Positions 15,401-55,507 of a stretch of 64,000 nt of DNA are shown here, piece by piece (the first letter of the stretch is position 1; every line of letters starts with the position of its first letter). The position numbers were made by a program, and so were the translations under genes. Below the pieces are notes generated by a model, which saw nothing but the letters and a program-made list of their open reading frames with translations, was not told where the DNA came from and searched no databases. Origin of the DNA: Burkholderiales bacterium (GTDB taxonomy: Bacteria; Pseudomonadota; Gammaproteobacteria; Burkholderiales; JACQAP01); NCBI GenBank assembly GCA_035549715.1, contig DASZQJ010000092.1, forward strand, positions 2,735 to 66,734, in the 5' to 3' direction.

Positions 15401-18400
15401 ACGACGTGTTCACCATCGACTTCGACCGGCAGCAAGGCCCGGTCGGCGGCAATGACACGATCATCGGCGGCGAGGACGGCATCGGCAACATCATGCTGGG
15501 CGGCGGCGGCAACGACATCCTGCGCGGCGGCTCCGGCAACGACGTCATCCTGGGCGACGGCGGCTACGTCTACCGCAATGCCGCCTCGATCGTGACCCGC
15601 GTCGAGACCCGGTCCCCGGGCATCGGCGGCGTGGACGACATCGAAGGTGGCGCCGGCACGGACGTGATCATGGGCGGCGCCATGGGCGACACGATCAATG
15701 CGCCCTCCGGTGGCAAGATCATCCTGGGCGACAACGGCGTGGCGGTCCTCGACGGCGACAACCGTGACGTCTACAGCACCGACTACGACATCGGCGGCGA
15801 CGACGAGATCCGTGGCGGTGAGGACGGCCTGGGCAACATCATCATCGGCGGCGCCGGCAACGACACCAAGCTGTTCGGCGGCTCCGGCGACGACGTGATC
15901 CTGGGCGACAACGGCTACGTGCAGCGCGCGGCCGACGGCACGCTGATCCAGGTGCGCACCATCGCCCCGGGCATCGGCGGCGCCGACATCATCGAAGGCG
16001 GCGCGGGCACGGACGTGATCATGGGCGGCGCGATGGGCGACAAGATCACCGCGCCTTCCGGCGGCAAGATCATCCTGGGCGACAATGGCGTGGCCAACTT
16101 CGCCGGCGACGATCGCGACGTCTACTCGACCGATCCCGACATCGGCGGGGCGGACGAGATCATCGGCGGCGCCGATGGCGTGGGCAACATCATCATCGGC
16201 GGCGCGGACAGCGACACCAAGCTGTTCGGCGGCTCCGGCGACGACGTGATCCTGGGTGACAGCGGCTATGTGCAGCGTGCGGCCGACAAGTCGCTGGTCA
16301 AGGTCTACACCATCGCCCCGGGCGTGGGTGGCAAGGACGTGATCGAGGGCGGCGCCGGGACCGACGTCATCATGGGTGGTGCCGACGACGACAGGATCAC
16401 CGCCCCGACCGGCGGCAAGATCATCCTGGGCGACAACGGGGTGGCGAACTTTGCCGGCCCGGACCGCGACGTCTACTCCACGGACGAGGACATCGGCGGC
16501 GTCGACCTGATCATCGGCGGTGCCGACGGGGTGGGCAACATCCTGATCGGCGGCGCCAAGGGCGACACCATCAGCGGCGGCACGGGCGATGACGTCATCC
16601 TGGGCGACAGCGGCTATGTCCGCCGCGACGCGACCCGCAAGCTCGTGGAAGTGCACACGACGGCCCCGGCCATCGGCGGCGCGGACCACATCGAGGGCGG
16701 TGCCGGCTTCGACATCATCATGGGCGGCGCGGACGGCGACTTCATCAATGCGCCCACCGGCGGCAAGATCATCCTGGGCGACAACGGCCAGGCAAACCTC
16801 GCCGGCCCGGATCGCAATGTGTTCTCCACGGACGAAGCGATCGGCGGCGTCGACATCATCGTCGGCGGCAAGACGGGCGAGGGCAACATCATCATCGGCG
16901 GCGCAATGGGCGACGAGATCTCCGCGGGCACGGGAGACGACGTCATCCTTGGCGACAGCGGCCGCGTGGTGCGCCGGGCCGACGAGACCCTGGTGCGCGT
17001 CGAGACGACCGCCCCGGGCATCGGCGGGGCGGACAACATCCAGGCCGACGACGGCTTCGACGTGGTCTTCGGCGGCGCCGACGGCGACAACATCCAGGCG
17101 GGCCTCGACGCCAGCCGCGACGTGGTCGTGGGCGACAATGGCTACGCGGTGTTTGACGCCGGCGAGGTGCTCACCGAGATCCGCAGCACGGACGAGAACA
17201 TCGGCGGCGACGACAACATCCTCGTCGGCGACGGTGACGACTTCGTGATCGGCGGCATCGGCAGCGACTACATCAACATGGACCGCGCCACCGGCCTGCC
17301 GATCGGCAGCGACAACGGCAAGGACACGATCATCGGCGACAACGGCTACGCCCGCTTCGACTCCGTCGGCGGCAAGAGCCTGATCCGGGAGATCCGCACC
17401 ACCGCACCGCAGTACGGCGACCGCGACTTCATCTTCGCGGGCAACGGCCAGGACGTGGTGCTGGGCGGCAGCGGCGGGGACTTCATCGACGCGGGCATCG
17501 ACGGCAGCCGCGACATCGTGCTGGGCGACAATGGGGAGGCGTTCTTCAGCCCGACCGAGGTGCTGCTCACCATCCGCACCACGGACCCGACTTTCGGGGG
17601 CGACGACGACATCCGCACCGGCGACGGCGCGGACATCGTGCTGGGCGGTGCTGGCAACGACCTCATCCTGGCGAGCGGGGCGACCGGCTTCCAGGACGCA
17701 CGCGACCTGATCGCCCAGGGCAAGTACAACCAGCTGGATCCGGGTGATGCCGTGCGCGACATCGTGCTCGGCGACAACGGCGAAGCCAACTTCAACGCGG
17801 CCGGCGTGCTGCAGAACGTGAAATCCACCGATACCACGATCGGCGGCGATGACACCATCGTCACCGGCCGCGGCGACGACATCGTGATCGCCGGCATGGG
17901 CAGCGACAAGGTGCTGGCCGATGGCGGCGACGAGGTCCCGGACATGGTCATCGGCGACAGCGGCTACGCGACCTTCGACGGCAGCGCGGCCTTCCTGCCG
18001 GGCGAGGACGAGAAGATCCTGAGCTTCAATTTCACGGGTGCCGACAAGGGCGTGCTGACCGGCGTGGCCGGTGCCGGCGCCGCCCGGGCGGGCAACTGGA
18101 ACAACCTCAACGGCGGCGGCTATCGCGTCTACGGCGACGATGCGGGCGAAATCCTGTACTTCGACGACGGCTCGATTGCCCCCGGCATCGGCATCCAGTG
18201 GGGCGCGGACCTCGATTCGACGTCCAGGCACGACCCGAACAAGCTGCACCTGGAGGACCACCACCAGATCAACCCGGGTTCCAACCAGGACAAGACGCTG
18301 TTCGACGGCTACCTGACGTCCAACTCCAACGACACCGTGGGCGTGGACATCAGCGGCCTCAGCAGCCACTTCAAGTCCTACGACGTCTATGTCTACCTGG

Positions 18401-21400
18401 ACATGGACGACAGTGACAGCAAGTCCGGCACGTCCGTGCGCAGCATCGACGGCAACGGCCTCAAGTACTACCTGAACGACCCGGATGGCAACACGTTCAC
18501 GGGCACGTATGTCGAGGTGACGTCGACCACCGCCAGCGGCGCCCAGAAGGGCAACTACGTGGTGTTCCGGAACGTGACTTCGGACACGTTCAAGATCCGC
18601 ATCGACGACATCGACCCGAGGAACCAGGGCAACAAGCCCGGCGTCACGGGCGTGCAGGTGGTGGGCAGGAGCAACCCGATCGACCGCATCGAATCCATCG
18701 ATTCGGCCTCGGGCGGTGACGACATCATCCTCACGGGGGGTGGAGACGACATCGTGTTCGGCGGCGCCGGCAACGACATCATCAAGACGGCCGGCAACGC
18801 GGCCTACGGTGCCATCGACAACGACATCGTGGCGGGCGACGACGCGCGGGCGACGTTCATGAACGGCGAGTTGCGCAGCCTCGTCACGCTGGATGCCGAG
18901 ACCAATGCCAACGGCCCGGCCGGACGCTTCAATGACACGATCTGGACCGGCAACGGCGACGACGTGGTCATCGGCGGCAACGGCTCCGATTTCATCAATA
19001 CCACGGTGACGGCCGACGATTACGACTACGGCAACGTGTCGGTGATCAGCATGAAGTTCAACAGCCAGGTCGACCAGGGCGGCGTCACGGGCACCGCGGG
19101 TGCGGTGGCGGCCGACAACTGGAACAACCTGGCGAGCGCCGGCAAGGGCGCACAGGCCGGTCTGCTCGATGACGACGGCGGTTCGACGGGCGTCAAGGTC
19201 ACCTGGGGCGAGGAGCAGTACAACTACAAGACCAAGTCCTACGAGCTCACGGCGACGACCGACCGCGACACGCACGACCTGATCGACCCGTCTTCGCAGA
19301 ACGAACGCCTGTTCGAAAGCTCCATCGAGCGCGACGACTGCACGCTGGGTGTGGACCTGACGGGCCTGGGCTCGCTGGGAACCTACGACGTCTACGTGTA
19401 CTTCGACAGCGACGAGGCCGACAACCGCAACCAGGGCACCGCCGCGATGAAGATCACCGCGGGCGGCGTCAGCTACTACGTCAACGACCCGAAGGGCAAC
19501 ACCTTCGACGGGGAGTTCGTCGACGCGACGTCGACTGACAGGTACGCGCCGGGCGTGGGCAACTATGTCGTGTTCCGCGGCCTCACGCTCGACCAGCTCA
19601 AGATCCGCATCTCTGGAGACGAGTCGCTCGGGCGCTTTGCGGACGGACGGCCCACCATTTCCGGGATCCAGATCGTGTCCGGGGCCGACCGCGCCGGCGT
19701 CATCGACCAGCCGGCCGGCAAGATCGGTGGCGATTTCGACAACGACGTGGTGCTGGGCGACAACGCCGCCATCAACTGGTTCCATGGCCAGATGTACGAG
19801 GTCACGGCCACGAACCCGGTGGCGACGGTCCCCGATTCCGGCTTCCAGGCCGACACGATCGAAACGGGCGTGGGGGCGGACGTCGTCATCGGCGGCAACG
19901 GCGACGACAAGATCAAGGGTGGCGAGGGCAACGACCTGCTGCTCGGGGACAATGCCCACCTGCTGATGGACAACTCCCTGCTGCTCGGCCTGGGCGACTT
20001 CGACGAGGACAACTGGGACGACGGGCACCACCACCACGACCACTGGCACCACCATGACCACTGGCACCACCATCACTCGCACTTCAACCCCTACGACATC
20101 ATGGGGGTCGAACTGCTCAACGAGGACATCGGCGGCAACGATACGATCGAAGGCGGCCAGGACGACGACCTGATGTACGGCCAGGCCGGCGCCGACACCT
20201 TCGTGTTCGCGGGCTCGGAGCTGGGCGAGGATGCGGTGGTCGAGGCCGGCACGGACTTCCACGGCGATGACCATTGGGACTGGAACTTCGACTTCTGGCA
20301 CTGGGGCTATGACGCCCATGGCCATGACCATCATGACCACGATTACCACGGTCCCAACGACGTGGGTGACACGCTCGACTTCAGCCAGTTCAGCGGCCCG
20401 ATCAGCGTCGACCTGGGTGTTTCGCACGAGCAGACCGTCAGCGCGGGCAACCTCAAGCTGACGCTGTTCCACGGCGATGCCATCGAGAACGTGATCGGCA
20501 GTGAGTTCGCCGACTGGATCGACGGCAACGACCGCGACAACGTCATCCTCGGCCTGGGCGGCAATGACAGGATCAACGGCCAGGACGGCTACGACTTCAT
20601 CGACGGCGGCGACGGCGCCGATGAGATCAATGGCGGCGGTTACGGCAAGGGCCACTACGGGCACCAGTACTGCCACAGCTACTTCTACCTGTACGGCCAC
20701 TATTGGTATCGCGACGGGGATGAATCCGACGTGCTGCTGGGCGGCGCAGGCAATGACAAGATCTGGGGCGCCGGCGGCAACGACACCATCGAGGGTGGCG
20801 ACGGCGACGACCTGATCTATGGCAACGGCGGCGCCGACAGGATGTACGGCGGGGCCGGCAACGACAGGATGTACGGCAACGCCAGCGACGACTGGATGGA
20901 CGGCGGCGACGGCAACGACTGGCTGTATGGCGATGGCGGCAACGACACGCTCTACGGCGGTGCCGGCAACGATGTCATCTACGGCCAGAGCGGCAACGAC
21001 TGGATGGACGGCGGCGACGGCAACGACACGCTTTGGGCGGACGGCGGCAACGACGTCCTGCTCGGCGGTGCCGGCGACGACCTGCTGTACGGCCAGAGCG
21101 GCGACGACCTCATGGACGGCGGCGACGGCAACGACCAGCTGTGGGGCGACACCGGCCGCGACATCCTCAAGGGCGGCAGCGGCAACGACAAGCTCTACGG
21201 CGGCCGCGACGACGACGTGCTCAACGGCGGTGATGGCGACGACTACCTCGACGGCGAAGGCGATGACGACATCCTGCTCGGCGGTGCCGGAAACGACACC
21301 CTGAAGGGCAACGACGGTGACGACGTGATCCTCGGCCAGGACGGCAACGACACGGTCGACGGCGGCTGCGGCCGTGACCTCGTCGACGGCGGCGATGGCG

Positions 21401-35460: not shown

Positions 35461-38400
35461 ATGAGGTCAGTGGCGCGGGCCCGCCTGGGCCTGGTCGTCG
35501 GCCTGTTGCTCGCCGCATCCGCCGGCGCAGCGCAGGTCGAGCGGTTTTCCCCGCAGGGCGAGGCCAGGGGCGTGCGCCAGGTGGCGGTGCGCTTCACCGA
35601 ACCCATGGTCGCCTTCGGCGATCCGCGTCTGCCGCAACCCTTCGACATCGAGTGCGCCGAGGCGGGCACCGGCCGCTGGGCCGATCCCCGGAACTGGGTC
35701 TACGATTTCGACCGCGACCTGCCCGCCGGCGTGCGCTGCCGCTTCACCCTCAAGCCCGGCCTGACCACGGCCGCCGGCGCGGCGATGGAAGGCGCGCCGG
35801 CCTATGAATTCAGCACCGGCGGGCCGGCCGTGCTGCAGAGCCTGCCCTACGAAGGCGCCGAGATCGACGAGGGGCAGGTCTTCCTGCTCGGGCTGGAGGC
35901 CCCCGCCGACGAAGCCTCGGTGGCCGAGCACGCGTGGTGCGACGTCAAAGGCGTGGCGGAGCGCATCGGCGTGCGCGTGCTCTCCGGCGAGGCGCGCCAG
36001 GCGATCCTGGAGGCCCGCAGGGACTTCGTGCAGCGCCTGGGGCGCGTCCTGGGCGCGGACTCGCGGTCCGCGGCGGGCAGCCGCGCCGGACTTGCGGTGG
36101 TGGCCCTCGAGTGCGCGCGGCGCCTGCCCAACGATGCGCCGGTGCGCCTGGTCTGGGGCCGGGGCATCGCGTCGACGAGCGGCGTCGAAACCGCACAGGA
36201 CCAGGTGCTGGCCTTCCAGGTGCGCGGCACGTTCCAGGCGCGCTTTTCCTGCGAGCGCGCCAACCGGGACGCGCAATGCCTGCCGATGCTGCCCATGCAG
36301 CTGTCGTTCTCGGCGCCCGTGCCGCGCGCGCAGGCGGAAAAAATCGTGCTGCGCCCGGCGCGCGGCGGCCCCATCGCCGCGAAGCTCCCGCCCCCCGCCC
36401 AGGCCGGCGAATTCGTCGACCGGGTGAGCTTCGAGGGGCCGTTCGCGGAGCGCGCCCAGTACAGCCTCGAGCTGCCCGCCGGCCTTGCGGACGACGCGGG
36501 CCGCAAGCTGGTCAACCAGAAGCGCTTCCCGCTGGCGGTGCACACCGACGAGTTCCCGCCGCTGGCGAAATTCCCCGCGCGCTTCGGCATCATCGAACTG
36601 AAGGGCGACGGCATGCTCCCGGTGACGCTGCGCAACCTGGAAGCCATGGTGCAGGCGCGCATCGCCGCGACAGGGCGCCAGGACGACCCGCGCGGGCCGC
36701 TGGCCGACAGGGCCGACGAGGCCATCCACTGGCTGAAGAGGAAGCTCGACGAATCGAAGCATGACGAGGCCCCGGGCGTGCCGGCCGCCTACTCGCGGGT
36801 GGCCGACGGCGACGTCATGGCCATGCTGGGCTGGATGAAGCGCATGCGCGAGATGGAGCGCGATCGCTGGCGCTACGACGAGGCGACGCAACAGAGCGTG
36901 CCGGAATACCGCAGCGGCCAGTCGTCGATCTTCGTCGAAGGCGACAGGGTGCGGCGCCTGGACGTGCCCAAGCCGCAGGGCGCGCGCGCCTTCGAGGTGG
37001 TCGGCATCCCGCTGCGCAAGCCGGGGTTCTACGTGGTGGAGCTGGCGAGCCCGCGCCTGGGCGCGGCGCTGTTCAACCAGCGCGCGCCGTACTACGCGCA
37101 GGCGTCCGCGCTGGTGACCAACCTGGCGGTGCACCTGAAGTGGGGGCGCGAGGCGTCCCTGGTGTGGGTGACGGCGCTCGACACCGGCCTGCCCGTGGCG
37201 AAGGCGCACGTGGCGATCCAGGATTGCGCGGGCAAGGTCTATTTCCGCGGCCAGACGGATGCGCAGGGGCGCGCGCGGGTGCCGGTCGCGCTGCCGAACC
37301 GCGACAAGCTGCCGGGCTGCCTCGACGCCTACGACCGGCAACTGGTCGCTTCCGCCCGCGCCGGCGAGGACCTGTCGTTCGTGATGTCCGAATGGAACGA
37401 GGGCATCGCGCGCTGGCGCTACAACCTGCGCGACGCGCAATGGTCCGGCCCGTTCATCGCGACCACCGTCTTCGACCGCCCGCTCCTGCGCGCAGGCGAG
37501 ACCGTGGGCATGAAGCACTACTACCGCCGCCACGGCATGAAGGGCTTCTCCTTCGTGCCGGCGGACGCGCTGCCGAAAAAGATCGTCATCCAGCACCAGG
37601 GCTCCGAGGAAAAGTACGAGCTCCCGGTCGCCTGGGACAGCCGCAACAGCGCCGAGTCGCGCTGGAAGATCCCGGAAGGCGCGAAGAAGGGCGCCTACAC
37701 GGTCCTGATGACCGACACGCTCGAGGCGCGGCCCGGCGCGCGCGGCAACACCCGCGTGAGCGGAAGCTTCCGCGTGGGGGAGTTTCGCGTGCCGCTCATG
37801 AAGGCGGAGGTGGCCGGCCCGAAGGTGGCGCAGGTCAACCCCGGATCGGTGGCCCTCGACCTCGGCCTGCGCTACCTCTCGGGCGGCGGTGCCGGCAACG
37901 CGCCGGTCCGCCTGCGCAGCGTGGTGCGTCCGAAGGCGGTCGACTTCCCGGCCTACGACGGCTTCGCCTTCGCCAACGGCGCGGTGAAGGCGGGCGTCGA
38001 GGCACAAGGCGAGGCCGGGCCGTTCTCCGGCGAGTATGCGTTCGACGACGAGGAAGGCGAACCGGCGACGCCCGTGGCGCCGGGGGTGCGGCCGCTGAAG
38101 ACCGTGACCACCCGCCTCGATGCCGCCGGCGTTGCCCGCGTGCGCGTAACCGACCTGCCGGCGCTCGACAGTCCCCAGGAGCTCAATGCGGAGATGGAGT
38201 ATGCCGACCCGAACGGCGAGCTGCTGACCGCATCGACCCGCGTCAGCCTTTGGCCCGCGCGCGTGATCCTGGGCATCAAGCCCGATGCCTGGGCGATGTC
38301 GCCCGGGCAGCTCAAGTTCCAGGTGCTGGCCCTGGACCTCGCGGGCAAGCCGGTCAGGGGCCAGGCGGTGAAGGTGCAGCTCTACGTGCGGGAAACCTAC

Positions 38401-41301
38401 AGCCATCGCAAGCGCCTGGTCGGCGGTTTCTACGGCTACGAAAGCGGCGCCGAGGTGAAAAAGGTCGATGCCGCGTGTGAGGGCGCCACCGATGAACGCG
38501 GGCGCCTCGCCTGCGCGGTGCAGCCGCCGGTGTCGGGCAACCTGCTGATGTCGGCCGAGGCGCGCGACCGCGACGGCAACCTGGCGCATGCGAACGCCTC
38601 CGCCTGGGTGGCGGGCAAGGACGCCTGGTGGTTCGACCAGGGCAACGACGATCGCATGGACGTCATCCCGGAACGCAGGCGCTACGAGCCCGGCGAGACG
38701 GCGCTGTTCCAGGTGCGCATGCCTTTCCGGGAGGCCACCGCGCTGGTGACGGTGGAGCGAGAGGGCGTGATCGAGTCCTTCGTCCAGCCGCTGTCCGGCA
38801 GCGCCCCGGTCGTCAAGGTGCCGGTCAAGGGCGGGCACGCGCCCAACGTGTTCGTGTCGGTGCTCGCGGTGCGCGGGCGCGTCTCCGGCGTCGCGCCCAC
38901 GGCGCTGGTGGACCTGGGCAAGCCGGCGTTCCGGATGGGCGTGGCGGAAATCAGCGTCGGCTGGAAAGCGCACGAGCTGGGCGTGAAAGTGTCGACGGAC
39001 AAGGCCGTCTACAAGGTGCGCGACCGGGCGAAGGTCAGGGTGCAGGTCAGCCATCGCGCCACGGGCAGGCCCGCCGCGGGCGGCGAGGTCGCCATCGCCG
39101 CCGTCGACGAAGGGCTGCTCGAGTTGCTGCCCAATGATTCCTGGAAGCTGCTCGACGCCATGATGCAGCCGCGTGGCATCGAGGTGGACACCGCCACGGC
39201 GTCGATGCAGGTCGTGGGCAAGCGCCACTACGGCCGCAAGGCGCTCCCCCAGGGCGGAGGCGGGGGGCGTGAGACACGCCGCGAGCTGTTCGACACGCTG
39301 CTGCTGTGGAAGGGGCGCGTGGCGCTGGACGCCAGGGGCCGCGCCACGGTGGACATCCCGCTCAACGACTCGCTCACGACCTTCCGCATCATCGCCGTGG
39401 CGGACGCGGCCCAGGGGAGCTTCGGCACCGGCCAGGCCTCGATCCGCGCGACCCAGGACCTCATGCTGCTCTCCGGCCTGCCGCCGCGGGTGCGCGAAGG
39501 CGACCGCTTCGAGGCCCGCTTCACCGTGCGCAACGCGTCGGACCGCGCCATGCAGGTCGAGGTGAACGGCAAGGTGGAAGGGCAGGCGCTGCCGGCCACG
39601 CGCCTGCAGCTCGCGGCCGGCGAGGCCGCGGACGCGAAATGGGAGGCCAGCGTGTCCGCCGACACGAGCCGGTTGCGCTGGGAGATGGCGGCGGCCGAGG
39701 TCGGCGCATCGGGCGTGCCAGCGGCCGATCGCCTGAAGGTGGAGCAAACGGTCGCGGCCTCGATCCCGGTGCGAACCTACCAGGCCACGCTCGCGCAGCT
39801 CGAGCAGCCTTTCGAGATGTCGGTGGGCCTCCCGGCCGATGCGGTGCCCGGACGGGGCGGCGTTCGCGTAAACCTGCTGCCGCGGCTGGGCGACGGGCTC
39901 GCGGGCGTGCGGGAATACATGGGCGCCTATCCGTACACGTGCCTGGAGCAGCGCGTGTCGCGCGCGGTCGCGCTGCGCGATGCGGCGGCGTGGGAACGCC
40001 TCATGAACGAGCTGCCGTCCCATCTCGACCGGGAGGGGTTCGCGCGCTATTTCCCGTCGATCCGCGAGGGCAGCGACACGCTCACAGCCTACGTGCTGGC
40101 CGTGGCGAACGAGGCGGGATGGACCATTCCCGAGGCGCCGCGCGCGCGCATGCAGGAGGCGCTGCGCAAGTTCGTCGCCGGCCGCGCCGGCCGCGACTCG
40201 CCGCTGCCGGCCGCGGACCTCACCCTGCGCAAGGTCGCGGCGCTGGACGCGCTCACGCGCTACGGCCCCATCGAGCCCGGGATGCTGGATTCCCTGGAGA
40301 TCGCGCCGGACCTGTGGCCGACCTCCGCGGTGCTCGACTGGCAGGGCGTGGTTCGCCGCAGCGATGCCGTCAAGGATCGCGCGCAGCGGCTGGCCGAGGC
40401 CGCGCAGATCGTGCGTTCACGCCTGAACTTCCAGGGCACGACGATGGGATTCTCGACCGGGGACGGCGACTACCTGTGGTGGCTCATGGTGTCCGGCGAC
40501 GTCAACGCCAACCGCGTGCTGCTCGCCGCCCTGGACGACCCGGCCTGGCGCGAGGACGTCCCGCGCCTGGTGCGCGGCACGCTCGGGCGCCAGCAGCGCG
40601 GGCGCTGGAACACCACGGTCGCCAATGCCTGGGGCGTGCTCGCGCTCGAGAAGTTTTCCGCGGCCTTCGAAGCCGGGCCGGTGGCGGGGCAGGCGAGGGC
40701 GGGCCTGGACCACCAGCGCCAGGCGCTCGACTGGGGGGGAAAGCCGGAGGGCGGCGTTCTCGACTTCCCCTGGCCGGCGGCGGCCGCGCCGCTTTCCGTG
40801 GTCCAGGAAGGCGCCGGCAAGCCCTGGGTCATGGTGCAAAGCCGGGCCGCGATCCCGCTCAAGGCCCCGCTTTCCAGCGGTTACCGCATCCAGCGCACCG
40901 TGACGCCCGTCGAGGCGAAGGTGCCGGACGAACTCGTGCGCGGCGACACCGTGCGGGTGCGCCTGGAGATCGAGGCGCAGTCCGACATGGCCTGGGTGGT
41001 GGTGGATGACCCGGTGCCGGCGGGTGCGGCGATCCTCGGCACCGGGCTCGGGCGCGATTCGCAGATTCTCGCCTCCGGCGAGGCGGCACCGGGTCTGCTC
41101 CGGCCCGCCTTCGAGGAGCGGACCCTCGACGCGTTCCGCGCCTACTACCGCTTCGTGCCCAGGGGCCGCTGGAGCGTCGAGTACACGATGCGCCTCAACA
41201 ACCCGGGCCGGTTCGAGCTGCCGCCGACGCGGGTCGAGGCGATGTACGCGCCGGAGATGTTCGGCGAACTGCCCAACTCGGCCGTGATGGTGAATCCGTG
41301 A
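35461..41301 (+). CDS. yfhM: Bacterial alpha-2-macroglobulin family protein (1946 aa) with a thioester motif
   Basis: RBS GGGAGGA precedes ATG 35461. Signal peptide present. CLEQ thioester motif at 39940-39951 (YPYTCLEQRVSR). It lies immediately upstream of pbpC, as in the YfhM-PbpC pair. Confidence 0.9.
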   Translation: MRSVARARLGLVVGLLLAASAGAAQVERFSPQGEARGVRQVAVRFTEPMVAFGDPRLPQPFDIECAEAGTGRWADPRNWVYDFDRDLPAGVRCRFTLKPGLTTAAGAAMEGAPAYEFSTGGPAVLQSLPYEGAEIDEGQVFLLGLEAPADEASVAEHAWCDVKGVAERIGVRVLSGEARQAILEARRDFVQRLGRVLGADSRSAAGSRAGLAVVALECARRLPNDAPVRLVWGRGIASTSGVETAQDQVLAFQVRGTFQARFSCERANRDAQCLPMLPMQLSFSAPVPRAQAEKIVLRPARGGPIAAKLPPPAQAGEFVDRVSFEGPFAERAQYSLELPAGLADDAGRKLVNQKRFPLAVHTDEFPPLAKFPARFGIIELKGDGMLPVTLRNLEAMVQARIAATGRQDDPRGPLADRADEAIHWLKRKLDESKHDEAPGVPAAYSRVADGDVMAMLGWMKRMREMERDRWRYDEATQQSVPEYRSGQSSIFVEGDRVRRLDVPKPQGARAFEVVGIPLRKPGFYVVELASPRLGAALFNQRAPYYAQASALVTNLAVHLKWGREASLVWVTALDTGLPVAKAHVAIQDCAGKVYFRGQTDAQGRARVPVALPNRDKLPGCLDAYDRQLVASARAGEDLSFVMSEWNEGIARWRYNLRDAQWSGPFIATTVFDRPLLRAGETVGMKHYYRRHGMKGFSFVPADALPKKIVIQHQGSEEKYELPVAWDSRNSAESRWKIPEGAKKGAYTVLMTDTLEARPGARGNTRVSGSFRVGEFRVPLMKAEVAGPKVAQVNPGSVALDLGLRYLSGGGAGNAPVRLRSVVRPKAVDFPAYDGFAFANGAVKAGVEAQGEAGPFSGEYAFDDEEGEPATPVAPGVRPLKTVTTRLDAAGVARVRVTDLPALDSPQELNAEMEYADPNGELLTASTRVSLWPARVILGIKPDAWAMSPGQLKFQVLALDLAGKPVRGQAVKVQLYVRETYSHRKRLVGGFYGYESGAEVKKVDAACEGATDERGRLACAVQPPVSGNLLMSAEARDRDGNLAHANASAWVAGKDAWWFDQGNDDRMDVIPERRRYEPGETALFQVRMPFREATALVTVEREGVIESFVQPLSGSAPVVKVPVKGGHAPNVFVSVLAVRGRVSGVAPTALVDLGKPAFRMGVAEISVGWKAHELGVKVSTDKAVYKVRDRAKVRVQVSHRATGRPAAGGEVAIAAVDEGLLELLPNDSWKLLDAMMQPRGIEVDTATASMQVVGKRHYGRKALPQGGGGGRETRRELFDTLLLWKGRVALDARGRATVDIPLNDSLTTFRIIAVADAAQGSFGTGQASIRATQDLMLLSGLPPRVREGDRFEARFTVRNASDRAMQVEVNGKVEGQALPATRLQLAAGEAADAKWEASVSADTSRLRWEMAAAEVGASGVPAADRLKVEQTVAASIPVRTYQATLAQLEQPFEMSVGLPADAVPGRGGVRVNLLPRLGDGLAGVREYMGAYPYTCLEQRVSRAVALRDAAAWERLMNELPSHLDREGFARYFPSIREGSDTLTAYVLAVANEAGWTIPEAPRARMQEALRKFVAGRAGRDSPLPAADLTLRKVAALDALTRYGPIEPGMLDSLEIAPDLWPTSAVLDWQGVVRRSDAVKDRAQRLAEAAQIVRSRLNFQGTTMGFSTGDGDYLWWLMVSGDVNANRVLLAALDDPAWREDVPRLVRGTLGRQQRGRWNTTVANAWGVLALEKFSAAFEAGPVAGQARAGLDHQRQALDWGGKPEGGVLDFPWPAAAAPLSVVQEGAGKPWVMVQSRAAIPLKAPLSSGYRIQRTVTPVEAKVPDELVRGDTVRVRLEIEAQSDMAWVVVDDPVPAGAAILGTGLGRDSQILASGEAAPGLLRPAFEERTLDAFRAYYRFVPRGRWSVEYTMRLNNPGRFELPPTRVEAMYAPEMFGELPNSAVMVNP

Positions 41302-41443
41302 AGGGCCGTGAATACCGTGAATATCGTGAATAACGTGAATATCGAGGAAGCAGGTTTGACGCGACGCCTTCGCCCGCATCGGGCAGTCGTCATTGCGACA
41401 TTCACGGCATTCACGTTATTCACGATATTCACGGTATTCACGG
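41283..41443. repeat. Inverted repeat made of 9-bp tandem units (CGTGAATAN x4-7 versus NTATTCACG x5), with perfect 35-bp arms at 41306-41340 and 41409-41443 and a 68-bp spacer
   Basis: The left arm CCGTGAATACCGTGAATATCGTGAATAACGTGAAT is the exact reverse complement of ATTCACGTTATTCACGATATTCACGGTATTCACGG. Degenerate extra units overlap the last yfhM codons. The right arm encodes the (X-F-T)x5 segment of the PbpC membrane anchor. Confidence 0.95.
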
Positions 41444-43584
41444 CAACCGCAGGCAACGCGATCGCCGACGTTCCGACATTCGCCGATGTGAAGTCGAACT
41501 GGAAGAGCACCGAAGGCATGCTGCTCGACCGCAACGGCGTCCCCATCCACGAGCTGCGCGTCGGCAACCAGGGCCGGCGCCTGCCCTGGGTGCGGCTGGA
41601 GGACATCTCGCCGGCGGCGCTCGCGACCATCGTGCGCGCCGAGGACAAGCGCTTCTACCGGCACGAGGGCGTGGACTGGCTCGCGGTCACCGATGCCGCC
41701 CTGGACACGCTGCTGTTCTCCCGGCCGCGCGGGGCCTCCACGATTTCCATGCAGGTCGCGGCCCAGCTCGATCCGCACCTGAAGGCCGGCCGCCACCAGC
41801 GCACGCTGGCGCAGAAGTGGGACCAGATCCGCGCGGCGCAGGCGCTCGAGGCGCGCTGGACCAAGCGCCAGATCCTCGAGGCCTACCTGAACCTGTCGAG
41901 CTACCGCGGCGAGGTGCAGGGCATCGGCGCCGCCGCCCGCGCCCTGTTCGGCAAGCAGGCGAGCGGCCTCGATGCGCGCGAATCGCTGCTGCTCGCGGTG
42001 CTGTTGCGCGGACCCAATGCCAGCCCGGAGAAAGTGCGGGCGCGCGCCTGCGCGCTCGGCCGCGGGATGGACGCAGGGGCCGATTGCGCCGGCATCGAGC
42101 GCCTGGCGCGCCAGGTCCTCGCGGCCGAGCCTGCGCTCGCGCCCGCGGTGGCCCTGGCGCCGCACCTGGCGCGCGAGCGGCTCTCGCCGGAGCGCCCCCG
42201 CGTGCAGACCACGCTCGACGGGACCCTGCAAGCCCATGCGGCCGGCCTGCTGCGCCAGCAGCTCGCGGCGCTCGCCGACCGCCATGTGGCCGACGGCGCG
42301 ATCCTCGTGGCCGACAACCGCAGCGGGGAGGTGCTGGCGTACGTGGGCAACGGCGGGGAAGGGGCGAGCGCCTGGTACGTCGACGGCGTGCAGGCGCCGC
42401 GCCAGGCCGGCTCGACGCTCAAGCCCTTCCTGTACGAGATGGCGATCGGGCAGCGGCTGCTCACCGCGGCCTCGCTCGCGGACGATTCGCCCGTGAACCT
42501 GCTCACGCCCTCGGGCTTCTACGTGCCGCAGAATTACGACCGCGAGTTCCGCGGCCTCACCAGCGTGCGTACCGCGCTCTCGTCCTCGCTCAACGTGCCG
42601 GCCGTGCGCACGCTGATGCTGGTCGGGGCCGAGCCCTTCGTCGAACGCCTGCGCGAGCTGGGCTTCACGCACGTCACCGGCGACGGCGACTTCTACGGCT
42701 ACTCCCTGGCGCTGGGCTCGGCCGAGGTGAGCCTGTGGGAGCTCGCCAACGCCTACCGCACGCTGGCCAACGGCGGCCGGCAGTCGCCGCTGCGGGTGGA
42801 GCCGGGGACGTCGGCGGCGCATCCGGTGCTGGATCCGGAGGCGGCCTACGTGATCGCCGACATCCTCTCGGACCCGGTCGCGCGCAGCGTCTCCTTCGGC
42901 CTGGAGAATCCGCTGTCCTCGCGCCACTGGGCCGCCGTGAAGACCGGCACCAGCAAGGACATGCGCGACAACTGGTGCGTGGGCTTCACCGGGCGCTACA
43001 CCGTGGCCGTGTGGGTGGGCAACTTCGACGGCAGCCCGATGCACGATGTCTCCGGCGTGACCGGCGCCGCCCCCGTCTGGCTGGAACTCGTGAACTACCT
43101 GCACCGCCACGTGCCGTCGACCCGTCCGCCCGCGCCGCCGGGGCTGGTGAGCGCGCAAGTGTCCTTCGAGGCCGCCATCGAGCCGCCACGCGCCGAGTGG
43201 TTCCTCGCCGGGACCGAGACGGACCGCGTCGCGCGCAAGGCGCCGGAGGCGGCCGCGGCCGCGATCGCCTATCCCGCCAGCGGCACGATCCTCGCGCTCG
43301 ATCCCGACATCCCGCCGGCGGCGCAGCGCGTGCGCCTGCTCGCCTCGGGCGCCGGCGCCGGGCATCGCTTCCGCCTCGATGGCGAGGACGCCGGCGCCGC
43401 GGCGGGTGGCGCCTTCTGGGCGCCCCAGCCCGGGGTGCACGTGCTCGAACTGGTCGATGCCGCGGGAGCGGTGGTGGAGGCCGTGCGCTTCGAGGTCCGG
43501 GGCGCCGCGCTGCACTCGCGCCTGCCCCAGGCCGCCCGCGCCACCCGTTTCGCCGCGGTCCTGCGGGCGATTGCCGCCGCCTGA
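41308..43584 (+). CDS. pbpC: Penicillin-binding protein 1C (transglycosylase/transpeptidase)
   Basis: Transglycosylase motifs (RAEDKRFYRHEGVDW, RKxxE-like KWDQIRAAQALE), a transpeptidase SxxK (GSTLKP) and KTGTS. The track start GTG 41308 lies inside the repeat. A more plausible start is TTG 41356, 5 nt after GAGGAAG, which gives the signal-anchor LTRRLRPHRAVVIATFTAFTLFTIFTVFTATAG. Confidence 0.9.
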   Translation: MNTVNIVNNVNIEEAGLTRRLRPHRAVVIATFTAFTLFTIFTVFTATAGNAIADVPTFADVKSNWKSTEGMLLDRNGVPIHELRVGNQGRRLPWVRLEDISPAALATIVRAEDKRFYRHEGVDWLAVTDAALDTLLFSRPRGASTISMQVAAQLDPHLKAGRHQRTLAQKWDQIRAAQALEARWTKRQILEAYLNLSSYRGEVQGIGAAARALFGKQASGLDARESLLLAVLLRGPNASPEKVRARACALGRGMDAGADCAGIERLARQVLAAEPALAPAVALAPHLARERLSPERPRVQTTLDGTLQAHAAGLLRQQLAALADRHVADGAILVADNRSGEVLAYVGNGGEGASAWYVDGVQAPRQAGSTLKPFLYEMAIGQRLLTAASLADDSPVNLLTPSGFYVPQNYDREFRGLTSVRTALSSSLNVPAVRTLMLVGAEPFVERLRELGFTHVTGDGDFYGYSLALGSAEVSLWELANAYRTLANGGRQSPLRVEPGTSAAHPVLDPEAAYVIADILSDPVARSVSFGLENPLSSRHWAAVKTGTSKDMRDNWCVGFTGRYTVAVWVGNFDGSPMHDVSGVTGAAPVWLELVNYLHRHVPSTRPPAPPGLVSAQVSFEAAIEPPRAEWFLAGTETDRVARKAPEAAAAAIAYPASGTILALDPDIPPAAQRVRLLASGAGAGHRFRLDGEDAGAAAGGAFWAPQPGVHVLELVDAAGAVVEAVRFEVRGAALHSRLPQAARATRFAAVLRAIAAA

Positions 43585-53865: not shown

Positions 53866-55293
53866 ATGGCGGCGGACGCAAAAGGGGCGGCCGCGGCGGG
53901 TGCCGCCGACGGCGCCGACGTCGAGCAGGCCCTCTACGAGGTCCGCCGCAAGATCTATCCGCGTGCGGTGACCGGCAGGTTCGCCCTGTGGCGCTGGTTC
54001 TTCGTCTGGGCCACCCAGCTCGTCTTCTACGGACTGCCGTGGCTTTCCTGGAACGACCGCCAGGCGGTGCTGTTCGACCTGGTGCACCGCAAGTTCTACA
54101 TCTTCGGCCTGGTGTTCTGGCCGCAGGACATCGTCTACCTCGCGGTGCTGCTCATCATCAGCGCCTACTCGCTGTTCCTGTTCACGGCGGTCGCGGGGCG
54201 GCTGTGGTGCGGCTTCGCCTGCCCGCAGACGGTCTACACGGAGATCTTCCTGTGGATCGAGAAGGTGATCGAGGGGGATCGCCTGCGGCGCATGAAGCTC
54301 GACCAGTCGCCGCTGTCGGCGCGCAAGGTTGGCCTCAAGGCCGCCAAGCACGGGGTCTGGATCGCCGTGGCGCTGTGGACGGGGTTCACCTTCGTCGGCT
54401 ACTTCACCCCCATCCATACCCTGGGCGCCGGGGTGCTCGGCGCCGGCCTCGGCCCCTGGGAAACCTTCTGGATCCTGTTCTACGGCTTCGCGACCTACGG
54501 CAACGCCGGCTGGATGCGCGAGCAGGTGTGCAAGTACATGTGTCCGTACGCGCGCTTCCAGAGCGTGATGTTCGACCGCGACACCCTGATCATCACCTAC
54601 GACCGCGAGCGCGGCGAGCCGCGGGGCGCGCGCGGCCGCAAGGTGGACGCGAAGGCCCGCGGGCTGGGCGATTGCGTGGACTGCGGGATCTGCGTGCAGG
54701 TTTGTCCCACGGGCATCGACATCCGCGACGGCCTGCAGTACGAGTGCATCGGCTGCGCCGCCTGCATCGACGGCTGCAACCAGGTGATGGACAAGATGAG
54801 CTACCCGCGCGGCCTGATCCGCTACTCGAGCGAGAACGCCCTGCACGAGCACCTGGGCTTCGGACGCATGCTGCGGCGCGTGCTGCGGCCGCGGGTGCTG
54901 CTCTACACGGCCATCCTCTGGGCGATCATCCTCGCTGCGGGCGTGGCGCTGTACGAGCGCGTCCCCGTCAAGGTCGACGTGATCCGCGACCGCGTGGCGA
55001 GCCGCCAGGATTCGGACGAGGCCGAGAACGTCTACCGCCTGCAGGTCATGAACACCACCGAGGCGCCGCGGCGTTTCGTGATCTCGGTGGCCGGGCTCGA
55101 GGACATCGAGATCGAGGATGGCGACCCGCAGGTGGACATCGGCCCCGCGAGCTCGCGCATGATCCCGGTCCGCGTCGAGGTGGATCGCGAGCACGCCCGC
55201 AAGGGCGCCAACCCGATCGTGTTCACCGTGCGCACCGTGGACGACGGCCCGCCCGTCGTCATCACGGAAAAGGCAAGCTTCGTGGTCCAGTGA
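53866..55293 (+). CDS. ccoG: cbb3 oxidase accessory protein CcoG/FixG (polyferredoxin-like)
   Basis: CGFACPQT, CKYMCPYARFQ, CVDCGICVQVCPTGIDIR and CIGCAACIDGCN. Confidence 0.9.
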   Translation: MAADAKGAAAAGAADGADVEQALYEVRRKIYPRAVTGRFALWRWFFVWATQLVFYGLPWLSWNDRQAVLFDLVHRKFYIFGLVFWPQDIVYLAVLLIISAYSLFLFTAVAGRLWCGFACPQTVYTEIFLWIEKVIEGDRLRRMKLDQSPLSARKVGLKAAKHGVWIAVALWTGFTFVGYFTPIHTLGAGVLGAGLGPWETFWILFYGFATYGNAGWMREQVCKYMCPYARFQSVMFDRDTLIITYDRERGEPRGARGRKVDAKARGLGDCVDCGICVQVCPTGIDIRDGLQYECIGCAACIDGCNQVMDKMSYPRGLIRYSSENALHEHLGFGRMLRRVLRPRVLLYTAILWAIILAAGVALYERVPVKVDVIRDRVASRQDSDEAENVYRLQVMNTTEAPRRFVISVAGLEDIEIEDGDPQVDIGPASSRMIPVRVEVDREHARKGANPIVFTVRTVDDGPPVVITEKASFVVQ

Positions 55294-55316
55294 AATTCAT
55301 GCCGGCCCTCGCCCCA

Positions 55317-55454
55317 GGGGACACGGAGGACGCAGAGGAGGAATGGAGAACATGAAATGAGAGATCGGGAACCGTCACCGGATTCCGGGCATTCGATTGC
55401 ACCCGCCATCGGGTCGGGCTTTCTTCGCCTTCCCCCTGCGTCCTCCGCGTCCCC
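55317..55454. repeat. Long-range inverted repeat in the ccoG-ccoH spacer (19-bp arms, one mismatch, ~100-nt lower-GC interior)
   Basis: GGGGACACGGAGGACGCAG (55317-55335) versus CTGCGTCCTCCGCGTCCCC (55436-55454). Confidence 0.7.
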
Positions 55455-55507
55455 TGCGGCTGGCGCCGGGTCCGGCAACCGTGGCGCAGGGAAATAAGGA
55501 GGTGAGC

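Follow-up and report, generated by a model that had tools for sequence, protein, structure and literature searches.

The DNA analysed here is a stretch of 64,000 nucleotides (hereafter the window) from a Burkholderiales bacterium (GenBank assembly GCA_035549715.1, contig DASZQJ010000092.1, positions 2,735 to 66,734), in which a long inverted repeat of 9-bp units lies at the junction between a gene for an alpha-2-macroglobulin-like protein (A2M, yfhM-like) and pbpC, the gene for penicillin-binding protein 1C. We propose, with a probability of about 0.7, that this hairpin is a resident copy of a dispersed family of palindromic repeats, termed the "nonamer-array hairpin element", and that its downstream arm has been exapted as the membrane anchor of PbpC. 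An exapted repetitive palindromic element was among the roles suggested by an earlier reading made without database searches (the sequence-only reading). It is the role borne out by the present analysis, as the unit and its architecture are dispersed over many loci and genomes and the right arm appears to be the only possible signal-anchor of PbpC.

The inverted repeat and the start of PbpC

Positions 41305-41340 and 41409-41444 of the window are exact reverse complements over 36 bp, one more than the 35 bp originally reported, and are built of CGTGAATNN units. Imperfect pairing extends to 57 nt at 82% (41305-41361 with 41388-41444). The left arm (41305-41340, + strand) is intercistronic and comprises four canonical units, GTGAAT-AC/AT/AA/AT-C, preceded by AGGGCC. 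Its matches to CGTGAATA start at 41307, 41316, 41325 and 41334 on the + strand, in the 9-bp spacing first described, and three further sites lie on the - strand within 41417-41442. These seven are the only matches in the 64-kb window, where 0.34 would be expected and none of 100 shuffles reached seven; the seven matches to the two-unit pattern are likewise all located at the hairpin. The A2M stop codon, TGA 41299-41301, lies within variant units on the outer side of the left array (GTGAATCC, GTGAAGGGCC; 41290-41307, + strand), and the stem begins 4 nt after this stop.

The 68-nt interior (41341-41408, + strand), which constitutes the loop, carries the Shine-Dalgarno-like GAGGAAG (41344-41350), the putative TTG start (41356-41358) and an n-region, M-T-R-R-L-R-P-H-R, with interior length, ribosome-binding motif and start codon all as previously noted. 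The hydrophobic segment begins there too, and its first ATTCACG unit (41400-41408), imperfectly paired, still belongs to the interior. Five reverse-complement units follow the interior. The right arm (41409-41444, + strand) is read in the frame TTC-ACG-NNN as (F-T-x)n, the predicted h-region of the PbpC signal-anchor, and is followed by GGCAACCGC, within pbpC. The GTGs of the left arm are all in the pbpC frame.

The predicted fold of this region is far stronger than those of shuffled sequences, both as RNA (-89.5 kcal/mol, z = -8.25) and as DNA (-57.9 kcal/mol, z = -8.7), and the hairpin forms a low-G+C island (53-56% G+C versus ~72% in the flanks). The same architecture recurs in independent JGI, ENA and NCBI assemblies, and the hairpin is thus no assembly artefact. 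An Rfam scan of 40800-41900 at E<=1 gave no gathering-level match, the best hit being a plant miRNA model at 26.5 bits versus a 73-bit threshold. Neither an intrinsic terminator (U tract) nor an internal promoter was found in 40900-41800. As the stem is no intrinsic terminator and no promoter-like site is present, A2M and pbpC are probably co-transcribed.

The A2M gene (35461-41301, + strand; Pfam bMG3, MG2, A2M_BRD, A2M and bMG10) ends in the unit-like codons GTG AAT CCG TGA (V-N-P-stop), 54 nt upstream of TTG 41356. With the start corrected to this TTG, pbpC spans 41356-43584 (+ strand; Pfam Transgly, Transpeptidase and BiPBP_C). The recorded protein of the window (P0001, 698 aa) has its first codon, GTG 41488, downstream of the repeat and lacks a membrane anchor: the maximum 19-residue Kyte-Doolittle mean from this codon is 0.75, which corresponds to no hydrophobic segment. 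From TTG 41356, the value is 2.17 (residues 10-28), attained by the h-region AVVIATFTAFTLFTIFTVF that the right arm encodes, compared with 1.79 for the transmembrane segment at the equivalent place in E. coli PbpC. The right arm, which translates as T-F-T-A-F-T-L-F-T-I-F-T-V-F-T, must be translated because it provides the only hydrophobic segment before glycosyltransferase and transpeptidase domains that must reach the periplasm, and the pipeline start at GTG 41488 is therefore wrong.

The N-terminus read from TTG 41356, M-TRRLRPHR-AVVIATFTAFTLFTIFTVFTATAGNAIA-DVPTF, exhibits a basic n-region, a hydrophobic core and an A-x-A end, and aligns with the E. coli anchor and with the relatives' MRRLRT-IFTTFTIFTVFT-...A-EIPTF. 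Relatives have an ATG at the equivalent position of the loop, followed by basic residues and then by the arm. This comparison supports the start and ribosome-binding site initially assigned, and we infer that translation begins at TTG 41356, within the loop. Of the 120 best PbpC homologs, ~33 have periodic F-T-x or V-T-x cores at the N-terminus. Nearly all units are TTC-ACG in those junction copies of GTGAAT type that were read, with one unit of locus L124 reading CTC. Synonymous variation is thus absent where protein-level selection would permit it, which argues that the constraint acts on the DNA unit, not on the protein.

Gene callers extend the PbpC of relatives through the left arm (N-termini VNIVNAVNI... 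and VTDVTIVT...), so that starts at such elements are systematically mis-called. The A2M and pbpC genes of the window share one frame, split only by TGA 41299-41301, and no stop interrupts this frame in the left arm (V-N-x). A2M and PbpC would be fused if that one TGA were read through, an arrangement that is not conserved, the L118 locus being in another phase.

A dispersed family and its position at stop codons

One genome per species was scanned for three consecutive units, which yielded more than 116 stretches; the family counts of loci, paired elements, units and loci per metagenome-assembled genome (MAG) rest on the matches listed and are lower bounds. The architecture is GGCC-[GTGAAT-R-Y-C]n, a variable interior and [G-R-Y-ATTCAC]m-GGCC. 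It occurs at no fewer than 72 loci in 20 assemblies, with at least 11 loci in the richest single MAG, and betaproteobacterial, Burkholderiales or 'Alcaligenaceae' MAGs account for about two-thirds of the matches listed. The genome-wide search for 9-mer arrays suggested by the sequence-only reading thus revealed a dispersed family and not a structure unique to this site; A2M-pbpC junctions make up two of the dispersed loci (L034 and L075). The order + array, interior, - array is seen in 57 elements among the matches listed, with 2-21 units per arm. The consensus of 390 units is GTGAAT followed by R (99%), Y (95%) and C (99%), and the units are spaced by 9 bp in 390 cases and by 8 bp in 30. GGCC caps at both ends delimit the elements as terminal inverted arrays. 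Interiors of 17-418 nt are mostly unrelated, with a core, GATCTAGAGCTCTAG, shared by several of the short ones.

The family seems to be previously undescribed. Rfam holds no such family, and the open-access literature returned nothing relevant for the exact unit strings or for 9-bp tandem palindromic repeats of Betaproteobacteria, which is weak evidence of absence. An artificial (FTx)n peptide used to search a protein database gave 11 candidates, none of which scored, and was uninformative.

The family exhibits a strong positional preference for stop codons. Gene contexts were assigned with a simple caller based on codon-position G+C, applied to the 55 paired copies whose loci have 55% G+C or more. 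The classified copies comprise 30 in tandem, 11 in convergent and one in divergent contexts, and 41 of the 42 abut at least one gene 3' end; one divergent copy among the 12 convergent and divergent ones has P ~0.003, the two spacer types being equally frequent in genomes. Of the 45 sides that face a gene 3' end, 23 have the stop followed after 4-7 nt by the first canonical unit, typically in the form stop + RRGGCC + GTGAAT, and a further six have it inside that unit (together 29 of 45). On almost all other such sides, the stop falls at increments of ~9 nt (13-16, 20-27, 31-35, 40-41 and 49 nt), and in the inspected flanks variant units (GTGAC or GTAAA, for instance) make up the sequence between stop and canonical units. 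None of the called genes extends across an arm from its 3' end, and the stop that penetrates deepest is 12 nt into the array. The left side of the window copy fits this rule (TGA, AGGGCC, GTGAAT), and its stop + RRGGCC + GTGAAT layout is found at dispersed copies as well. The sequence-only reading had envisaged, as a finding against its proposal, a common dispersed element resembling repetitive extragenic palindromes (REPs) with no positional preference; the dispersal was found and the lack of preference was not.

The element usually occupies the entire intergenic spacer, and on sides that face a gene 5' end the next start is often within a few codons, e.g. GGCCTTTC-ATG-A. At the right ends of L099, L102, L021 and L048, the terminal motif runs directly into the next start as GGCCTTTC-ATG-A. 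ATGA is present at the start in five of eight readable 5'-facing ends, as if the element occupied a former stop/start overlap, and no obvious Shine-Dalgarno sequence was seen in the arm at those ends.

Two broader roles for the family were considered and rejected. A signal peptide encoded by the arm family-wide does not agree with the absence of a frame preference, given that arrays followed by at least 150 open codons number 42 in the FT, 38 in the IH and 42 in the SR frame, called downstream genes are distributed as FT 8, SR 11 and IH 5, and the readable downstream starts lie after the arm. An origin from phages or plasmids was dismissed because viral contigs contained only 11 solo arrays, with no paired architecture, and plasmids gave no match.

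In L012 (3869-4370), an interior of 418 nt encodes on its minus strand a complete 23S rRNA-intervening-sequence protein (PF05635, E 1.3e-37), so that this small gene is framed by nonamer arrays. In four MAGs (L012, L025, L072 and L074), the GTGAAT element adjoins the same orthologous gene (N-terminus ...FNQPAPELGNQY...), which indicates that some dispersed copies are inherited vertically across species.

Turnover of the junction and matching of the arms

Comparison of the yfhM-pbpC junctions showed the array in some relatives, a second repeat family in others and neither in distant ones. Inverted arrays lie between the A2M stop and pbpC in all of seven loci: L117 (PbpC 91% identical to that of the window; GTGAC-type left arm and mixed right arm), L205 (74%; GTGAAT units), L118 (73%; GTGAAT units), L124 (72% over the first 120 mature residues; GTGAAT units), L119 (68%; GTGAC/GTCAC units), and the MAG loci L075 (GTGAAT units) and L034 (GTGAAT nested in GTGAC). 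The two arms share their unit type in most of these loci, L117 being mixed. In L034 (~596-840), a complete GTGAAT/ATTCAC element is located next to the left arm of an outer GTGAC/GTCAC hairpin, and in the predicted fold the outer arms pair together and the inner arms pair together. This complete nested copy indicates that the GTGAAT element inserts as a unit.

A second 9-bp family (CACGGAGGA) occupies the junction in L120, L121, L123, L125 and L206, with CTGAACCACGGAGGACACGGAGG as left arm and CCTCCGTGTCCTCCGTGGTGAAAG as right arm; there pbpC starts at the terminal GTG and encodes an ordinary hydrophobic core. The window itself contains a copy of this family at 55302-55469 (units CACGGAGGA / CGCAGAGGA; arms 84% complementary), between a gene that ends at TGA 55292-55294 and a gene that starts at ATG 55509. 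Relatives at 45-60% identity mostly have 68-110 nt between the final A2M codon and mature PbpC, a span that accommodates a signal peptide only and exhibits no 9-bp periodicity. L122 has a stop/start overlap (TTGA) and an ordinary hydrophobic anchor, and in E. coli K-12 the TAA is followed directly by ATG with no hairpin. The hairpin thus appears to be a lineage-specific addition to a once tightly coupled junction.

When 102 PbpC homologs out of the best 120 were clustered by similarity (18 lacking the alignment anchor motif were left out), FT, VT, second-family and ordinary N-termini were interleaved. The mature part of P0005 (FT) is 89.7% identical to that of P0009 (second family) and 75.8% identical to that of the window protein, which shares its FT type. 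The P0005 and P0009 DNAs agree well as far as the last three codons of A2M, are unrelated over the next 210-250 bases, and agree again from the c-region of PbpC onwards. Judged from these alignments, the block of stop, element, start and signal peptide appears to behave as a replaceable cassette. A single ancient insertion at the junction, considered at one stage, was abandoned in view of the interleaved states and of the cassette swapped between ~90% identical relatives.

Short tandem arrays directly after the A2M stop are also present in distant relatives, namely (GGGTGAA)x7 in L128 (~1195-1265) and (GGTGACC)x4 in L202 (~1105-1145), and GTGAAGGAG-type units take this position in L126 (~120-195). 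These three loci hint that short units containing GTGA tend to accumulate at the A2M stop. Further relatives may have a third family of short-unit repeats at the junction, to judge from the N-termini of P0098 and P0105 (...LRDLCVSVVK...).

The variable dinucleotides of the units, listed from the outside in, bear on the origin of the perfect pairing. In the window they are AC, AT, AA, AT on the left and, as reverse complement, AC, AT, AA, GC, GT on the right; in L124 they are AT, GT, AA, AT on the left and GC, AT, GC, GT on the right. Common descent would explain the inner units that the two loci share, GC and GT on the right and AA and AT on the left. The three outer right units of the window mirror its own left arm, including the rare AA variant (14 of 390 units), and on this pattern they appear to be copies of that arm. 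This perfecting of the palindrome altered residues of PbpC, L124 reading I-L-T-A-F-T and the window L-F-T-I-F-T-V-F-T, and the window has the longest perfect stem of 51 copies measured.

The A2M terminus fits this picture. Whether or not the element is present, the A2M C-terminus keeps the pattern V-x-V-x-P-stop, as far as ..VRP* in E. coli, which indicates a native stop codon; the idea that the element supplies the A2M stop was rejected at this locus for the same reason. At GTGAAT- or GTGAC-array junctions that end in V-N-P, these residues are written GTG AAT CCG TGA, with the rare AAT codon, and in second-family genomes GTA AAC CCC/CCG TAG. The unit pattern thus seems to have spread over the last A2M codons through synonymous sites.

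Competing explanations and related repeat systems

A course of events can be outlined for a resident copy of the dispersed family. At the A2M-pbpC junction, the arm inside pbpC would have replaced the ordinary hydrophobic core of the signal-anchor as (Phe-Thr-x)n, while the start codon with its ribosome-binding site and the basic n-region came to reside in the loop. The perfect 36-bp pairing would be a property of the DNA, renewed by recent arm-to-arm copying (palindrome-perfecting template switching), and presumably not a product of selection on mRNA structure. By analogy to REP hairpins, on the polycistronic mRNA a stem a few nucleotides from a stop codon probably acts as they do; it would be a barrier that uncouples genes originally coupled by stop and start and keeps PbpC synthesis low relative to A2M.

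Several results weigh against this reading. The window contains a single copy of the GTGAAT family. No transposase-like recurrent open reading frame (ORF) was present among 521 ORFs adjoining the copies (8-kb windows around the matches), no autonomous partner or related insertion sequence (IS) was seen around the copies, and no direct repeat indicative of a target-site duplication was detected beyond the GGCC caps, only stop and start codons. The case for mobility therefore rests on dispersal and on the one nested copy. The interiors (17-418 nt) are not conserved, unlike those of classic MITEs (transposable elements of the miniature inverted-repeat type). The interleaved N-terminal states point to repeated replacement or recombination at the junction in place of one clean insertion, the GTGAA-type heptamers after the A2M stop in L128 and L202 allow for some local growth of arrays, and the REP-like effect of the stem on expression is speculative.

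A dedicated regulatory mRNA hairpin would enclose the ribosome-binding site and start of pbpC, couple them to or insulate them from A2M translation or expose the transcript to RNase III cutting, and be kept by selection. This is unlikely, although the strong stem (-66 kcal/mol alone) starts beside a stop codon, its 36-bp duplex is a candidate RNase III substrate, and the unrelated second family holds the same junction in other relatives. Moreover, all GTGAAT/GTGAC junctions retain hairpin potential, with arms of matching type (GTGAAT/ATTCAC or GTGAC/GTCAC), and REPs are reported to stabilise upstream mRNA and, within 15 nt of a stop codon, to stall terminating ribosomes (PMC5082802). Template switching can nevertheless produce matched arms, an example being the copying of one arm into the other in the window, and mismatches in the stems of 38 copies with known transcription direction are G·U on the mRNA in 44 cases and A·C in 43, with no sign of mRNA-strand selection on pairing. 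The ribosome-binding site and start are situated in the loop, not in the stem, and their predicted unpaired probabilities change little when the left arm is removed (Shine-Dalgarno sequence 0.40 to 0.62; start 0.54 to 0.51). By an estimate from the usual footprint, a ribosome that terminates at 41299-41301 would cover no more than a few base pairs at the start of the 36-bp stem, and termination-dependent opening of the stem is therefore not favoured. E. coli and most relatives at 45-60% identity lack the hairpin, and the state of the junction differs between ~90% identical relatives. The mRNA stem by which the sequence-only reading made pbpC translation depend on ribosomes finishing yfhM is thus not supported by these predictions and comparisons.

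It is improbable that the arrays are not copies of a mobile family but grew locally out of the unit-like A2M terminus GTGAANCCNTGA, through template switching and replication slippage. Such local growth would account for the resemblance of the A2M terminus to a unit in genomes that have no GTGAAT arrays as well (GTGAAGCCCTGAAG in L121), for the heptamer arrays directly after the stop in L128 and L202, and for unit numbers that vary from 2 to 21 in the manner of variable-number tandem repeats. It does not account for the identical unit, the R-Y-C rule and the GGCC caps beside unrelated genes at so many loci, for the complete element nested in the older GTGAC hairpin of L034, or for the interior core common to several copies. 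The least probable of the explanations considered is that the arrays resemble iterons and serve as binding sites for a protein such as DnaA, a regulator, or a partition or nucleoid protein. The invariant hexamer, the fixed 9-bp register and the two tolerant positions do resemble a protein recognition code, and one unit per arm is a single mismatch from a DnaA box. Copies nevertheless lie at gene 3' ends and avoid divergent (promoter) regions, no recurrent neighbouring or cognate gene was found among the ORFs adjoining them, and the inverted layout with matched arms points to hairpin or cruciform logic. The iteron-like array of the sequence-only reading accordingly finds no support. The DnaA-box reading (TTATNCACA) was rejected, as only the rare AA unit comes within one mismatch and the window contains five such matches against 6.1 expected.

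Within the favoured explanation of a dispersed, exapted element, the choice of site may be taken one step further, in a proposal that is itself doubtful. The element might represent a new class of intercistronic element and target stop/start junctions (ATGA/TTGA overlaps), its ends TGAARGGCC ... GGCCYTTCA would regenerate the stop and, with a flanking TG, the start, and the stem would rejoin stop and start so that coupling survives; F-T-x or V-T-x arms would repeatedly overwrite signal-peptide cores.

Among known systems, the nonamer-array element appears to work most like a REP, a bacterial interspersed mosaic element (BIME) or a MITE-type palindromic repeat. Like REPs, BIMEs and REPINs, it is a multi-copy intergenic palindrome at gene 3' ends and within operons, with hairpins near stop codons. 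Those repeats are single imperfect palindromes of 20-40 nt with a GTAG-type (GT[AG]G) head and REP-associated tyrosine transposases (RAYTs), whereas the nonamer element has tandem arms of 9-bp units that do not fold alone, a variable copy number of units, interiors of up to 418 nt and no GTAG head, and no RAYT (tnpA-REP) gene was found among the 521 adjoining ORFs. With MITEs it shares terminal inverted repeats; the lack of a target-site duplication, the mostly unrelated interiors and the absence of an autonomous IS around the copies set it apart.

The exaptation resembles that of Rickettsia palindromic elements (RPEs), in which part of a dispersed palindromic repeat is translated in frame within a host protein (PMC10969869). 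Repeat-derived sequence is likewise predicted to be translated within the PbpC of the window and in the ~33 periodic homologs. RPEs are units of ~150 bp inserted whole into Rickettsia ORFs; the nonamer element contributes one coding arm, which would supply the signal-anchor, and its examined dispersed copies are otherwise intergenic, with no frame preference and with a different sequence and host clade. With no GTAG head, target-site duplication or conserved core, with no RAYT gene seen among the 521 adjoining ORFs, and with arms made of tandem nonamers, the element is not a member of the REP, MITE or RPE classes. Mycobacterial interspersed repetitive units are variable-number tandem units that are located between operon genes and touch stop and start codons; they are direct repeats of 46-101 bp with neither inverted arrays nor long hairpins, unlike the nonamer element. 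A looser parallel is offered by the short tandemly repeated repetitive sequences of cyanobacteria and the heptamers of Beggiatoaceae, dispersed short tandem arrays near gene ends or starts whose function is unresolved (bioRxiv 10.1101/2022.06.06.494920). They are 7-bp units of another phylum in mostly direct arrays, and neither stop-codon anchoring nor such paired inverted arrays are reported for them. The ordinary yfhM-pbpC junction has the same gene pair in the same order, with A2M and PBP1c co-expressed from one operon (PMC5764988); the window adds the 54-nt spacer and an anchor encoded by the arm.

Elsewhere in the window, long nested tandem arrays with periods of 27, 54, 81, 108 and 351 bp, rich in GGCGACGAC/GGCAACGAC, extend over 15443-21609. 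They probably encode glycine/aspartate-rich nonapeptide (RTX-like) repeats and are unrelated to the hairpin.

These results correct a gene model, in that the PbpC of this lineage would start in a hairpin loop and carry a repeat-encoded membrane anchor, a start at which automatic callers either truncate the protein or run it through the left arm. They point to a selfish-looking palindromic repeat as the source of a bacterial protein-targeting segment, one in which 'repair' of the palindrome at the DNA level rewrites residues of the PbpC anchor. The model of a 'periplasmic defence' operon of A2M and PbpC assumes co-expression (PMC5764988), and in this clade the junction between the two genes appears to be a fast-changing cassette. 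The repeat family resides in abundant uncultured Burkholderiales of soil and freshwater and stands in an unusually strict relation to stop codons; because of this relation, the choice of site by the elements and the effect of stop-adjacent hairpins on operons are directly testable.

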